Shown here in pieces: positions 1-12,000 of a stretch of DNA of 18,943 nt (the first letter of the stretch is position 1; the number at the start of each line of letters is the position of its first letter). Made by a program: the position numbers. This DNA comes from a virus. Lineage: Duplodnaviria > Heunggongvirae > Uroviricota > Caudoviricetes. The stretch is taken from IMG/VR virus record IMGVR_UViG_2529293214_000009, one strand, 5' to 3'.

Positions 1-3000
1 TTACCATACTGAAAATGCTGTTTGAATGTTCATCTCTGAAAGAGGACTATGAATGAAAAAGGTATTGATTGCAGCACTTATTTCTGGTGTGTCTTTTGGC
101 GCTTTTGCACAGCAGGGCGGTTTCCAAGGGCCTGAAGCAGAGCGTTCAACAGTAGCGCAGGCAAAAGAACTGAAGGATGATGCATGGGTTATCCTTGAAG
201 GGAGCATCGTTAAAAAAGTGGGTGATGAACGTTATGAGTTTCGTGACAATAGCGGGACAATTGTCACGGATATCGATGACAGCATATGGGCCGGTCAGAA
301 TGTTTCTCCGAAAGACAAAGTAAGAATTGAGGGTGAAATTGATAAAGACCTGAGCAGTGTTGAAGTGGATGTAAAGGCACTGAAATTATTAAAGTAACCG
401 TCCCAGCTTGCTAAGCCCGTCTTACTGACGGGTTTTCTGTTTGTTATCACAGTATTTTTCAACAAAACACCGAATCTTATCCGGTGCGCTGTAAAACCCC
501 GTCCTTCAGGGCGTGGAGGATGTCAAATGGCGTATATTTGGATATAAGAAAGCCATCCAATACTGGCTGAAAAAACTCCTCATCGATATCATCGTGGGCC
601 TGAATAGTTCCATCCGCAATTCTGATTGCCGGTATTGTTCCCCGGCGATAAGGGGTGAACATCATCCCGGTTACATCAGATCGCCTAATAACATATCAAG
701 ATTATTTTGCTCATAAATGCTATTCGCCATTACCGTTGCTGCTTCAGCTTAATGAAACGCATAGATCCGCCATGCTTTTTCAGCAAATACGCTGCCATTT
801 GCGCAACTTTTTCTTCATTAAACATAAATCGGCTCTCTGTATCACATGAAATGCTCTTCTGACTATATGTTAATAGCTCCGGTTATTACAGGTCAATGAG
901 TGTTTATTTCTTAATCAGCCCCGCACTTCCGTACGGGGCCATTTCTGTTAATCCACTCCCACTTTTTTGTTGTACTCGCGGTTAAACCGATCCACGGCAA
1001 TTTTCATATCCCGCTCTACCGATTTCACCATCGCCGACTGTTGCGCCAGACTGAGAGTACTGTCGGCGTAAATGGCATCACGCTGTTTACGCAAATCCTT
1101 CAGTCTCTTCCGGGTATCCTGCATAAGCCCGTTCATCGACAATTTTCCGTTGTTCTCGTCAATGAACGCCGTTCTTTCTGCACCGGTCAGACTCTTCAGC
1201 TCTGCGTGATACTGCGCAATCTCTGTCATCCGGTCGTACATCTTCTGCTGGTCTGCATACGGCATCACCTCCCCCGAAATTTTCCCCAGGAAGGGCACCT
1301 GCTGTTCCGGTATATCAATACCATTCAGCGATTTCACCGCCGCATCCGTGGTTTTGGAAATGAAGCGCCCTGTCCCTCCGGAGATATAGTCAATCCAGAA
1401 TTTCAGCGATTCCGGTGTGATATCCACCGCGCCGGGACGGTACTGGCTGCCACCTGAGAACGCATTCAGCCAGGATGCAAACGCCTTGTACGCTTCTGGC
1501 GTTGAACGTCTTCCCAGCTGGCTGTCAGGTTTTGGTGTACCAAACGGCATGTTCTCCTGGTAAATCTGCGCCCCCATGAAGTTTTCATTCATGGCAAGGT
1601 TCGCAAACGGACGCAGAATGGTCGGCGCTGCATTTTTCAGCAATGCCCCGGACAGTGTTTCCGACGTCTCACTGCCAATCGGGCTGAATGCACCAAGCAC
1701 ACCACCAACAACATTACCGGCAGCACGGGACGCCGTCAGGTCACCCGCCGCCACACCTTCAGCAGTATGCCCGAGCAGGAAGAAAACGTTGTACCCGTAA
1801 GGCAGAGGAATACTCCAGTACTCTCCGGCCTTGCCCCCGAACACCGATTTCATAATGACGAGGTTACGCTCTTTCACATGAGACGGCACCTTGTCATACC
1901 AGTTAACCCCGTCATCATCCTCACCCGCCACGCTGCGGTTAAGCGAGCCAAGCAGATAACCTGCTCCCACAGCGGCAAGCGCGATTTTCTGCGGAACATT
2001 CAGATTCTTCCAGCGAAGGCGCTCCAGTAAAGGTCCCTCACCATTAAGATGTCCGAGCGTTCTCACCAGATTTGCCGTTCCCTGAATGCTGGCGTTGGCG
2101 AACATGTACAGCGAATTCATCAGCGCCCCCTGCTCACCACGACGGTTAAAGTTCACCGTCATGTTTTTGGCAAGAGACGCCGCCTGCTGGCGTGACAAAC
2201 CGGCATCACGGGCGTGCTTATAGGCAGAAAGACGCAGAGCGTTTTCAACCGCACCGTTGGCATCCTCGACAAGGTTAAGGAACGAATTCCATGCACCGAT
2301 ACTCTGGCCTTTCCATCCCCCCTTCGCCAGTGAGACAAGGCGATCCATTTCCTTCTGCTGGCCTTCAAGGTCACCCATGTTAAACCAGCCGGTTTTCCCT
2401 CCGTCCTCAACAAACTCTTTCCACACCTTCTGCCACTGTGCACCTTTTCCCGTGAGGGTTTTACCACGCAGACTGGCGTATACGGCTGACATGGCAGAAC
2501 GGCTGTCTTTCACCACAGCCAGGGCGGATAAGTTATCCAGCCCTTTCAGTTTACCGTCGCTCCTTCCCTGCTCCGCCTTCAGGTTCATCACCGCCGTCTG
2601 CACGTCACGGATGAAGTTACTGACCAGGAATTCCGGGTTATACGACGTGTTCACCGTTGCCAGGAAGCGGTTAACTTTCCCCAGCGTACGAACAAAGGCA
2701 TTGCTGGTTTCCGGTCCCATACTCTTCATCGCACGCATCAGGCGCGGATCATGGAGTTTGATGTAGTACGTTTTGCCGTTCTTTTTGGTGGTGAAGTACC
2801 GGTCTGCCATCATTGCCATCGGTACAGGGCGTTCGACAACTTCGCGAATGGTTTCACCAGTTTCCTGGTCCTTGCGCTCTGCAATCGTCCGCATGGTATC
2901 CGGTCTGTCATCGGTGAATACCTGCCAGTAATCCTTGTCGGGATTATCCTGCACCAGTTTCAGGAAGGCGTTACCCACTTCGTTTTTGCGATGGCGGATC

Positions 3001-9000: not shown

Positions 9001-12000
9001 AAAATATCCTGCACAGTTGCGACACCCGGCAGCCCCATACGGCTGAACTCATTTAAAATACGCGCCCCTGTTTTTACCGGGCTCTGAATCATCGCATCAC
9101 CGAGTCCACGGGCCATTTCCCCTGTTCCCCGGACGGACTGGGCGAAACCTTTACCCATTGTTGGCAATACATCGCCCAGGCTGAACGACGTACTGTTATC
9201 CTTCCAGCGATTCGGATCAGAGAAAAATGCTTCATAGCTGTCAGTTTCGCCGGGTTGCTGAATGTTCAGGCTGTTACGATTCTGGTTACCGAGTTGCGCC
9301 TCAGGACGCTGTTCCTCTGAATAGGCCATACAGACTCCATAAAAAAACCCGGCACAATGGCCGGGCATCAGGAAATGGTATTAATGGAATATCGTGAATT
9401 ACTGGGCGTAATTCTGTTTCAGTCCACGGATAAACTGAGATGCAGATGAAGCACTTTCATCTCTGGCCTGTTCCCCCCTGGCCTTTTGAATACGGAGAAA
9501 ATTCGCATACCCGTTCTCCAGCAATTTCTGATTCTGAGGTTCCAGCATTTCAGGCTGACGGGCCGCTACATTTCTGGCAAATGACAGCTTGTCAGGATCA
9601 TCTCCCGCCCAGTTGATAACCTGTTGCTGAAGTTTTTGTTGCTGAATTTTCTGTTGATGCGGTTGTGAACCAGTCGCAGCATAATATTCATCCACCGCAG
9701 CCTGAGCATTACCGCCATTCTTGATCGCGTCCGCCGCTACGTTGCTGGCCCCCTTCTGAAGCTCTTTCAGAGAAAGTCCCTGCTGCTTCGGCATAAAATA
9801 ACCATAATTTTTCGATATCTCTGCAAATTTGCTGCGATCCCTGACCTGAGCGATAGCCTTATCAACGGGTATCGCCAGCACGGTTTGATCATCAGGGTGC
9901 GCACTGCCGTATTCTGTTACAGGTTTATGCGCGGTGGAGCCATCGCTGTATGTGAGATCAAGGCCAATAAGTACGTACCCTTCCTGCTGCGCTGGTACGA
10001 TACTGCCAATCCTGGCCTCTTTTATCGTTTTGTCCCCGGTTGAATCAGGCATGCCAATACGCTGTTGTAGTTCCGGGGCAAACACGCCGGAAAGCACATC
10101 GAGATTTTCCGGGGTATTCAGCGAATCGATCGCCATGTCCGGCTTATCACCAAAGATTTTTTGCAGGTTGATCACGGCCTGACCCGCTTTCGCTGCATAG
10201 CCTTCGTTTGACATAAGAATTAATGGATGTCCCTTTGGCAGCTGCCCGAACAGACGCGTTGCAGCCTCCTGATCGCCAGCCTCAATTGCTTTTCCAAGCG
10301 CTTCCATTAGTGGCTGGCTATGGGCAATCATATCGTTATACTCAAGCCGTCGCTGGTTGTATTTCTGCAACTGGAGTCGCTGCTGCTCCATACCCAGTGA
10401 CGCATTCCGGTAATTCTGGTTAGCGTTAAACTCCCTCTCCTTCAGTGCATAATTACGGTCGTCAACTTTGGCTCTGTAATCAAAGTTCCGCTGATCAACG
10501 TTTTTATTATGTTCAAACTGAGACTGCGCAAACTCAAAATCGCGCTCGTTATTTTTCTGTTGCCGGGCAAGCTGTGCTTCACGCAGACCAAGCTCCTTAC
10601 GACGGGTCATTGCCTGGTCAACGGTGCTGAATCCGGCAAGTAACCCCTGTGCAAATCCGCTCATTCACCACTCCTTAAAACAAAGAACCAGCAATGCCGC
10701 CAATTACTGCTCCAGCAACAGCACCAACAGGACCACCAACGGATGCGCCAATAGCCGCCCCCGTACCAATGCCCGTACCGATATTCTGCTTGTTCTGCGC
10801 TTTCTGTTGCGCCGCCATCTGTTTGTTCGCAGCCTCAATTTCTTCACGTCGTCTGTCTGCGTCACTTATTCCCTGTAATGCCTCACGCCGCGACTGATTT
10901 GCAATATCCAGTAAACCGTATCCCATATTGCCCCCTTACGCTGCCACCAGTTGGCCGCCAACACTCAGTTTCTGTCTTGCCGGTGCAGAAGCCCCCGTCA
11001 GAATATTCATCTGGCGATCCTGTTCGGCTTCACGGATACCATTTTTCGCGCCAGCAATTGCCAGGGCATTACGTAACCCCAGCGTATTACTGTCGGGATT
11101 ATCCGGGCGGTTTACCCCGTATCTCGCCATCTGGTTATCCTGCGCCATCTGCGCTGTACGGAGACTGGAAGTGGCAAGGCCTCCCACCCGTGCAAGCTGT
11201 GCATTCATCAGACTGTTGTTCTCCCCAAGGTCAGCCAGCCTTGCCACGCGGGGCAAATATCTGGTTCGCCAGTCGTCGTATTGTTGGCGTGTCAGCGCTG
11301 CTGACGTCTGCCAGTCACCCTGTGGGCGGTCTGCTCCTGAATAACCAGCCCTTGCGAGAGTTTCGTATTTGCCATACTCCATAATTACAGTCTCCAGTTC
11401 TGAGCCTGATGCTGAATGGCATTAGCGCCGGTGCCAGGTGTTTTAGCACCGCCACTTCCTCCGCTACCGCCAGCCTTATGCATCGCATATGCACCTGCCG
11501 CACCCAGACCAGCGCCAACAAGAGAGGCTCGCCCCTGCTGTTTCGTAAACGCCGCCTGTGCATCCGATTTAGCTTTTGCCAGACTGCTGTCTGCCAGAGA
11601 GTTAAAACTCTGTAACGCATCCGCCTTCTGACCAGAACCGAGAGCAGCAACATCCTGTAGCCCGGCAACATACTTATCTGCCTGCGATACCTGCCCCCGT
11701 GTGGTTGTGTCAATCTGCCCGGTTACCTGGTCACTCTGGTTCGCATTCATTACCGCATTAAAACGACCACTGGATGGGTCAACGCCGGACTGAGCAAGAT
11801 TACCCGCAAGCTCCTTCCGTGCTTCGCCAAACTGTTTCTGATACCCCAGATTTGTGGTGCCAGCAATATTGTCGTACTGCTGCTCACTGTTCAGGTCATC
11901 GACCTTTTCCATGAAGTTATCTTCAGCCGGGCGGAGGATATTTTTGTAATCCTGCCACCCTTTCCAGGCCACTTCTTCCTGTGCTATTTGCGCTGCTGTT

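Follow-up and report, generated by a model that had tools for sequence, protein, structure and literature searches.

The term "polyvalent proteins" was introduced for giant multidomain proteins, encoded by phages and conjugative elements, whose entry into the host along with the DNA is predicted (Iyer et al. 2017, PMC5512222). The domains LPD1-40, MuF-C/PBECR and MPTase, a metallopeptidase, were defined in the same study, with LPD38 occurring in phages only, and phage 933W is not mentioned in its main text. Here we analyze a giant gene in a stretch of 18,943 nucleotides from the IMG/VR virus record IMGVR_UViG_2529293214_000009 (hereafter the window), whose product shows 100% full-length identity to L0134 of 933W (AF125520/NC_000924) and to the equivalents of several other Shiga-toxin (Stx) phages in a tblastn search of phage genomes. 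It belongs to the large polyvalent proteins of short-tailed Shiga-toxin phages, specifically of the 933W/phi24B group. Neither the gene nor its domain families nor the notion of an ejection protein is new to the literature, and L0134 has been present in GenBank since the deposition of 933W. The current study adds a sharper domain map, a correction of the published map and the recognition of a family with conserved ends and a variable middle.

The closest described equivalent is "gp47" of phage phi24B, a protein of 2811 amino acids (aa) that was detected among 15 candidate structural proteins by mass spectrometry (MS) of a cryogenic electron microscopy (cryo-EM) sample of purified virions and is absent from the cryo-EM map (bioRxiv 10.64898/2026.04.10.717836, April 2026); the phi24B preparation included about 36,000 spontaneously emptied particles. 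Because it is found in virions yet missing from the map, it was proposed to be a capsid-packaged ejection protein that forms a trans-periplasmic conduit, and its MuF-C domain was read as a metallopeptidase digesting peptidoglycan (bioRxiv 10.64898/2026.04.10.717836). More distant is JC1 gp69, the 4515-aa "DarB-like" giant of a Bcep22-like podovirus, which is virion-associated with 51 unique peptides by MS, as is gp68, whose gene is located directly before that of the giant; the portal, capsid and head-closure proteins of JC1 are homologous to those of 933W (PMC9144972). The 2012 expression paper on phi24B lysogens and the cryo-EM preprint on PhiXacm4-11 do not mention this class of giant proteins.

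The combined evidence leads us to propose, with a probability of about 0.65, that the 933W protein is a virion-packaged polyvalent protein in which conserved delivery ends frame an exchangeable effector cargo. A few copies would reside inside the capsid and leave via the tail with or just before the DNA. The N-terminal conserved domain (residues ~174-470) and the C-terminal module would represent the structural and delivery parts, serving incorporation into the capsid and/or passage through the envelope, and the middle would be the cargo, in 933W a metallopeptidase cassette followed by an RNase-fold domain. The zincin domains would most likely either process the polyprotein into functional parts or act against proteins of the host, two roles already suggested for MPTases as a group (Iyer et al. 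2017, PMC5512222), and the PBECR domain would most likely bind or cleave RNA early in infection. The protein displays the hallmarks of the polyvalent class: several unrelated domains of conflict or effector type in one polypeptide (four Pfam domains and two HExxH motifs), a location among late and virion-structural genes, where it closes the late operon of 933W, and the zincin-like MPTase hub. With the giants of the Bcep22 gp75 type it shares a ~900-aa LPD38 module at the extreme C-terminus (residues 1884-2806) of a protein exceeding 1.5 kaa. The virion-ejection idea of the preliminary description, which was made from the sequence of the window, is sound but not new, and the delivery into the host is a step that we infer.

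The giant gene, its start codon and the detection of related proteins in virions

The gene and its 5' end comprise the following features:
948..9368, minus strand: giant open reading frame (ORF), L0134 / ST933Wp72 of 933W, 2806 aa according to RefSeq, stop codon at 948-950
9327..9338, minus strand: likelier start of the giant ORF, with GGAG at 9335..9338, a 5-nt spacer and ATG at 9329..9327, giving a 2793-aa product
9347..9366, minus strand: terminator-like hairpin of putative function, 7-bp stem with 6 G-C pairs, followed by a T7 tract (consensus scan and sequence)

The ORF list and the translation document a minus-strand ORF without internal stops that extends from 9368 to 948 and encodes 2806 aa from the first ATG. 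The single 8.4-kb ORF of about 2800 aa reported in the preliminary description is therefore uninterrupted (948..9368), and the position 9329 given there corresponds to the second in-frame ATG (Met14). This codon is better supported as the start than the ATG at 9368, because a GGAG motif precedes it at 5-nt spacing, the full-length alignment of the PHROG 616 profile begins at residue 14, and the first ATG, annotated in RefSeq and GenBank, is overlapped by the terminator-like hairpin. The hairpin reads CCCGGC-CATTGT-GCCGGG followed by seven T; it is located between a 421-aa gene and the giant gene and might throttle the expression of the latter. The annotated first 13 residues, which harbor the sole two cysteines of the protein, are probably untranslated.

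In 933W, a short-tailed phage of the Sepvirinae, the giant gene is the last one of the late structural operon and is preceded by genes for a nozzle-like protein, a tail-tip fibre and small structural proteins. RefSeq names its product, with a predicted mass of 310 kDa, "LPD5 domain-containing protein". In tblastn, 186 phage records cover 80% or more of the protein, and 427 of 5426 complete E. coli genomes (~8%) contain the gene, 423 of them at full length. The statement that proteins of this size are rare in enterobacterial prophages thus needs to be qualified. The unusual length alone could raise the suspicion of an assembly or sequencing artefact fusing several genes, and many database entries are indeed fragments from short-read contigs. 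The chance of such an artefact is nevertheless practically negligible, because the ORF is full-length in 423 complete genomes and identical in several Stx phages; it is uninterrupted in data of many laboratories, including the 186 phage records, and homologous giant ORFs occur in distant phages. The fusion by sequencing errors that the preliminary description named as a possible refutation is accordingly excluded.

The phi24B orthologue vb_24B_48 (ADN68472) shares 97% identity (2725/2807) with the giant ORF; it is syntenic, likewise closes the late operon and contains the same Pfam domains. Its detection by virion MS, together with that of the distantly related JC1 giant, corroborates the earlier proposal of a virion-carried protein.

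Domain map and metallopeptidase cassette

The domain organization of the giant protein is as follows (all on the minus strand):
7959..8849: N-terminal conserved domain, residues ~174-470 (blastp to the giant of Vibrio phage D62; phrog_37568; hydropathy and sequence)
8055..8105: (GxxxG)x4 glycine zipper, residues 422-438, which closes the N-terminal conserved domain
6627..8051: Pro/Glu/Asp/Gln-rich linker, probably disordered, residues ~440-914 (composition in windows and a crude disorder proxy derived from composition)
5730..6626: start of the cassette and LPD5, residues 915-1213, with the 'IEDFGE.I.GA.K / PLSK..P.P.Y' region (alignments with metagenomic homologues)
Residues 1064-1213: Pfam LPD5, E 6.5e-45
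5010..5729: zincin-like metallopeptidase 1, residues 1214-1453, with H1276, HEWFH 1297-1301, D1304 and E1388/R1392/E1395
Residues 1374-1453: Pfam LPD1, E 5e-24
4269..4901: zincin-like metallopeptidase 2, residues ~1490-1700, with HEIIH 1564-1568, H1569, E1572 and H1573
3813..4082: Pfam MuF_C (PF18819), residues 1763-1852, E 1.3e-17, profile positions 8-97 of 103
951..3719: family-defining C-terminal module (C-module), residues ~1884-2806 (~920 aa), which contains Pfam LPD38
1287..1904: Pfam LPD38, residues 2489-2694, E 7.8e-48

LPD5, LPD1, MuF_C and LPD38 are all families of polyvalent proteins, and the multi-domain polyvalent nature suspected in the preliminary description is thereby borne out. 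Profile searches, which had been recommended there, retrieved these four domains and no tape-measure, adhesin or RTX homology. Scanning ten separate segments against Pfam at E <= 5 gave nothing for the N-terminal 900 residues, for either HExxH core and for residues 1850-2480. A function other than that of a virion cargo, as tape measure, surface adhesin, RTX-type toxin or lysogenic-conversion factor, might be suggested by the large size of the protein, by the adjoining moron-like lom region and by the predicted leader peptide cited in the GenBank note on the phi24B gene. We regard it as hardly plausible: Pfam and PHROGs contain no matching tape-measure, adhesin or RTX family even at lenient thresholds, the gene resides in the late structural operon of a short-tailed phage (Sepvirinae; phi24B cryo-EM), and the phi24B orthologue of the protein is found in virions.

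Two specific candidates were rejected. For an RTX protein or adhesin, only four Pfam families appear at E <= 0.1, none of the Ca-binding nonapeptide or Ig/cadherin-like repeat type. A tape measure, already discounted in the preliminary description, has no family match in Pfam or PHROGs; the phage is short-tailed, and the protein combines mixed domains with disordered linkers.

Residues 174-421 match the N-terminus of the D62 giant (blastp, 28.5% identity, E 1e-25), and this N-terminal domain of D62 weakly matches the giant of Ralstonia phage YL1 right after its SLT domain (E 0.003). A word-indexed homologue search with the N-terminal 467 residues returned relatives from E. coli and Salmonella only, without informative architectures. 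The subsequent linker agrees with the long Pro/acidic stretches noted before; proline accounts for 10-14% of residues 701-900 and Asp+Glu for 18-20% of residues 401-700, and Pfam has no match in the region (residues ~440-914) at a lenient threshold. The hydropathy scan of the whole protein detected no convincing transmembrane helix, the best 19-residue Kyte-Doolittle mean being 1.38.

Both HExxH motifs, HEWFH at 1297 and HEIIH at 1564, fall outside the four Pfam matches. LPD1 of Pfam corresponds to the C-terminal helices of metallopeptidase 1 including the downstream Glu helix; a single conserved cassette, starting at about residue 915, therefore comprises LPD5, the HExxH core and LPD1. Alignments with 35 and 15 homologues show no variation at H1276, H1297, E1298, H1301, D1304, D1375, Y1382, W1383, E1388, R1392 and E1395. 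In a widespread clade of phage-type MPTases, strand 2 ends with a conserved His, and an Asp follows HExxH at a distance of three residues (Iyer et al. 2017, PMC5512222); the residues of metallopeptidase 1 match this clade. Pfam scans of 36 and 38 individual homologues provided no bridge to a named peptidase family.

Structure models were generated for the cassette (residues 915-1700) and for the C-module. The AlphaFold2 model of the cassette has a predicted local distance difference test score (pLDDT) of 75 and places around each HExxH a helix, strands, the HExxH helix and a later helix, as in the zincin core; the predicted topology of metallopeptidase 2 is strand-helix-strand-strand-HExxH helix. 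The zincin-like MPTase hub of polyvalent proteins, with an HExxH helix, a downstream Glu helix and a three-stranded sheet core, is thus recognizable. A Foldseek comparison of the cassette model with the PDB returned nothing significant, with anthrax lethal factor and M9 collagenase among the weak matches. Among known structures, the zincin domains have protein endopeptidases (MtfA, lethal factor, Pro-Pro endopeptidases) as their neighbours and not cell-wall hydrolases. With moderate confidence, we assign the zincin fold to the two HExxH metallopeptidase domains of the giant protein. The second motif is retained as HExxH or HExxxH in many homologues, and its region is also conserved ahead of the C-module in Vibrio phage D62, where the HExxH motif is missing. 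The two HExxH domains align in register in hhalign (E 0.005, probability 7%), which is too weak to call a duplication.

MuF-C has been defined as a PBECR domain with a barnase/EndoU/colicin-like RNase fold and not as a peptidase (Iyer et al. 2017, PMC5512222). The metallopeptidase reading in the phi24B preprint appears to be a mis-assignment, because the domain is of this RNase-fold type and the HExxH domains are located elsewhere, at residues 1214-1453 and ~1490-1700. Active domains of this type combine a His in the N-terminal helix with a Ser/Thr near the C-terminus. A candidate His (H1765) and a Ser within a 'VASVYG' motif are shared by divergent alleles of MuF-C, and their equivalence to these catalytic positions is putative. 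The E. coli allele P0003 is 97-100% identical to the 933W protein on both flanks of the PBECR block and only 34-49% across it (residues 1681-1860; 3789..4328, minus strand). The divergent block of P0003 recurs in the Salmonella allele P0139, and this mosaic pattern looks like a cassette exchange of the RNase-fold domain.

The C-terminal module and its exchangeable partners

The C-module is the most widely conserved part of the giant protein. An exhaustive search of 1.84 billion cluster representatives retrieved 8528 matches at E <= 0.001, 4762 of them at E <= 1e-30. Among the 150 matches listed, it is located at the C-terminus or within ~45 residues of it, and the complete proteins among them mostly comprise 1.8-5.2 kaa (up to 5181 aa); shorter entries appear to be fragments. 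The AlphaFold2 model of the module (pLDDT 82, predicted template modelling score 0.78) is mostly helical with one beta insert. In Foldseek it has no significant neighbour in the PDB (best E 0.12, TM <= 0.1), and hmmsearch with profiles of the C-module and of metallopeptidase 1, as well as phmmer with the whole giant protein, gave chance-level matches only against all PDB sequences.

Five distant phages illustrate the spread of the module (identity to the 933W C-module):
Vibrio phage D62: giant of 3066 aa, 41%
Methanosarcina virus MetMV: giant of 3002 aa, 28%
Ralstonia phage YL1 (GP4-like): giant of 3168 aa, 27%
Burkholderia phage BcepMigl: giant of 4658 aa, 27%
Bacillus megaterium phage Pascal: giant of 1672 aa, 22%

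The corresponding blastp E values range from 6e-64 to 0.0 for the four Gram-negative and archaeal giants and amount to 5e-14 for Pascal. In all five phages the C-module terminates a giant protein encoded by the last gene of the structural operon. The MetMV giant (MK170447, 2584-11592; locus L004) aligns in tblastn with 28% identity over 88% of the C-module (E 3e-77); its blastp E value is 1e-85 and its LPD38 match 1.4e-40. The LPD38-module family, otherwise found in bacterial podoviruses, thus spans domains of life via the archaeal virus MetMV.

The region ahead of the C-module is variable. It contains SLT, Eco57I-methylase, Helicase_C and PBECR1 in BcepMigl, SLT and LPD3 in Ralstonia phage YL1, and ART, methyltransferase, pyrophosphatase or LPD3 in metagenomic relatives. 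The cargo varies even among close relatives, because the Salmonella proteins P0033, P0030 and P0135 carry a different region, a 'phosphoribosyltransferase' according to one source, in place of the LPD5-metallopeptidase-LPD1 cassette. SLT is not universal in the family either, since it was not detected in the giants of Vibrio phage D62, MetMV and Pascal, and in 933W not even at E <= 5. The comparison suggests a family pattern of two conserved ends and an exchangeable middle.

One of these relatives also bears on an antirestriction role. DarB of phage P1 is a very large head-packaged protein with methyltransferase and helicase domains that is delivered with the DNA. A DarB-like function of the 933W protein, i.e. 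modifying or shielding the incoming DNA against type I restriction, could be derived from a weak match to phrog_10089 ('DarB-like antirestriction', 1.5e-25) and from BcepMigl gp16, which has the same C-module and is annotated as DarB-like. However, the phrog_10089 match is confined to the LPD38 region (residues 2364-2694), and Pfam detects neither a methyltransferase nor a helicase in the 933W protein, nor does a regular-expression search reveal a Walker A motif, in line with the absence of a P-loop noted in the preliminary description. The DarB label rests on cargo domains that are absent from 933W, because it is BcepMigl that possesses the Eco57I-methylase and Helicase_C, and we consider this function very unlikely.

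The interpretation of the phi24B preprint assigns a purely structural task to the entire protein, which would extend the short tail over the periplasm while its peptidase digests the wall, without any effector role. It accounts for an orthologue that is virion-associated but unseen in the map, for the need of short-tailed phages for ejection proteins, for the resemblance of the N-terminal SLT of relatives to T7 gp16 and for the glycine-zipper segments at residues 422-438 and inside LPD38. On the other hand, the presumed peptidase is the RNase-fold PBECR domain, the HExxH domains are similar to protein endopeptidases and not to cell-wall hydrolases, and there is no fold likeness to the ejection proteins of T7 or P22. 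The free replacement of the middle by ART, methylase/helicase, pyrophosphatase or PRTase-like domains is moreover hard to fit to a purely structural role, and we judge a conduit without effectors to be unlikely. The opposite extreme, a purely effector role, is disfavoured by the conservation of the C-module beside the virion module in very distant phages. The N-terminal SLT of the Burkholderia and Ralstonia giants argues, by its parallel to T7 gp16, that such proteins may cross the peptidoglycan.

Several points weigh against a packaged protein with delivery ends and effector cargo. Ejection, proteolytic processing and the protease and RNase activity of all family members are what we infer; the evidence from phi24B comes from an un-reviewed preprint; and the 933W protein does not have the SLT domain of its relatives. 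The C-module model bears no likeness to solved ejection proteins or other folds in Foldseek and profile searches, and the protein has no strongly hydrophobic transmembrane helix, so that a conduit or membrane role is supported neither by fold nor by hydropathy. Metallopeptidase 2 may finally be structural in some lineages, given its D62 counterpart without HExxH. As a tentative extension, which we hold to be possible rather than probable, the C-module, perhaps with the glycine-zipper N-domain and small upstream proteins, could constitute a genome-delivery device of novel structure that is common to the whole lineage. Such a device would be the functional counterpart of T7 gp15/gp16 in the 933W, GP4 and Bcep22 podoviruses and the Methanosarcina virus, with spliced-in cargo making one polypeptide both the conduit and the carrier of the first takeover enzymes.

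Genomic neighbourhood and comparison with known systems

The genes upstream of the giant gene in the window include:
9399..10664, minus strand: 421-aa gene (phrog_601), a candidate co-packaged partner
10675..10926, minus strand: 83-aa glycine-zipper protein annotated as 'bacteriocin' (Pfam Gly-zipper_YMGG 9.4e-6; phrog_594)
12966..13700, minus strand: Ail/Lom gene (Pfam 1.5e-32)
14707..15975, minus strand: tail-tip fibre gene with a weak lambda J match (PF09327 6.5e-11; phrog_31 'central tail fiber J' 2.6e-24)

The 421-aa gene has a homologue immediately before the gene of the D62 giant (L005:986-2389; phmmer 6.4e-12). In the four other Gram-negative and archaeal relatives examined, the giant gene likewise follows a gene of ~450-540 aa, a comparison of position and not of homology, and the upstream genes of the Burkholderia and Ralstonia phages are homologous to each other (E about 1e-60). 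These findings suggest that the upstream gene and the giant gene form a conserved pair. A 'homolog of a bacteriocin' was also detected in phi24B virions and dismissed as a contaminant over its annotation (bioRxiv 10.64898/2026.04.10.717836); it may be the counterpart of the 83-aa glycine-zipper protein. The latter may represent a genuine membrane-active virion or ejection component, because its gene is among the small ones that precede the giant gene.

The location after lom-like and J-like genes given in the preliminary description agrees with the Ail/Lom and tail-tip fibre genes upstream on the same strand, the J match being weak. The region 12900..14700 has a low G+C content (0.41-0.44 versus 0.50-0.57 nearby) and comprises lom and two small genes annotated as 'membrane associated' and 'outer membrane protein'; it looks like a moron island within the tail operon. 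A terminator-like site is located just past lom (12942..12924). A stress-tolerance gene of the YgiW/YdeI family with an OB-fold (53..397, plus strand; ST933Wp74 in 933W) is convergent with the giant gene, and collagen-like Gly-X-Y repeats occur in frames at the right edge of the window (18491..18894, minus strand), where they are part of the tail fibre and tail spike genes of 933W.

Short-tailed Stx phages disseminate Shiga-toxin genes within E. coli. The giant gene occupies ~14% of the phage genome and is conserved in ~8% of the complete E. coli genomes; its upkeep must therefore bring a benefit. If the protein is indeed conduit and effector carrier in one, it would offer a handle for blocking the transmission of Stx phages and provide an example of phages swapping their "first-strike" enzymes.

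In comparison with known systems, the 933W protein is most similar to phi24B gp47, from which it differs by point differences only; it is the domain reading of the preprint, with MuF-C as a metallopeptidase, that deviates from ours. It shares with the polyvalent proteins of the Iyer type the giant size, the multidomain composition, the late-gene context, the MPTase hub, PBECR and the LPD domains, and the Pfam families defined in that work leave both HExxH cores of 933W unannotated. The giants of the Lessievirus phages (Bcep22 gp75, JC1 gp69, BcepMigl gp16) and of the GP4-like Ralstonia phages (Gervaisevirus) harbor the same ~900-aa LPD38 module with 27% identity. Like the 933W equivalent they are encoded by the last gene of the structural operon, in podoviruses of ~60 kb that are related to 933W in their portal, capsid and head-closure proteins. 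They differ in their length of 3168-4658 aa and in the N-terminal SLT, to which BcepMigl adds methylase and helicase, whereas 933W contains the LPD5-MPTase-LPD1 cassette and MuF-C instead. The methyltransferase, helicase and P-loop that distinguish P1 DarB are undetectable in 933W.

The virion RNA polymerase of phage N4, a polyvalent protein of 3500 aa, is packaged and ejected and includes a zincin MPTase related to anthrax lethal factor (PMC5512222). The same factor is among the structural neighbours of the 933W cassette; the 933W giant has no RNA polymerase module, and N4 belongs to another phage lineage.

The internal capsid proteins of other short-tailed phages, T7 gp14/gp15/gp16 and P22 gp7/gp16/gp20, exit first and bridge the envelope. 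A likeness in role to the 933W protein is proposed, and relatives of the latter share an N-terminal SLT resembling that of T7 gp16, whereas PDB sequence and profile searches and Foldseek comparisons of the C-module and cassette models revealed no significant similarity. The three separate proteins of T7 and P22 are contrasted in 933W by one giant polypeptide with exchangeable enzymatic cargo.

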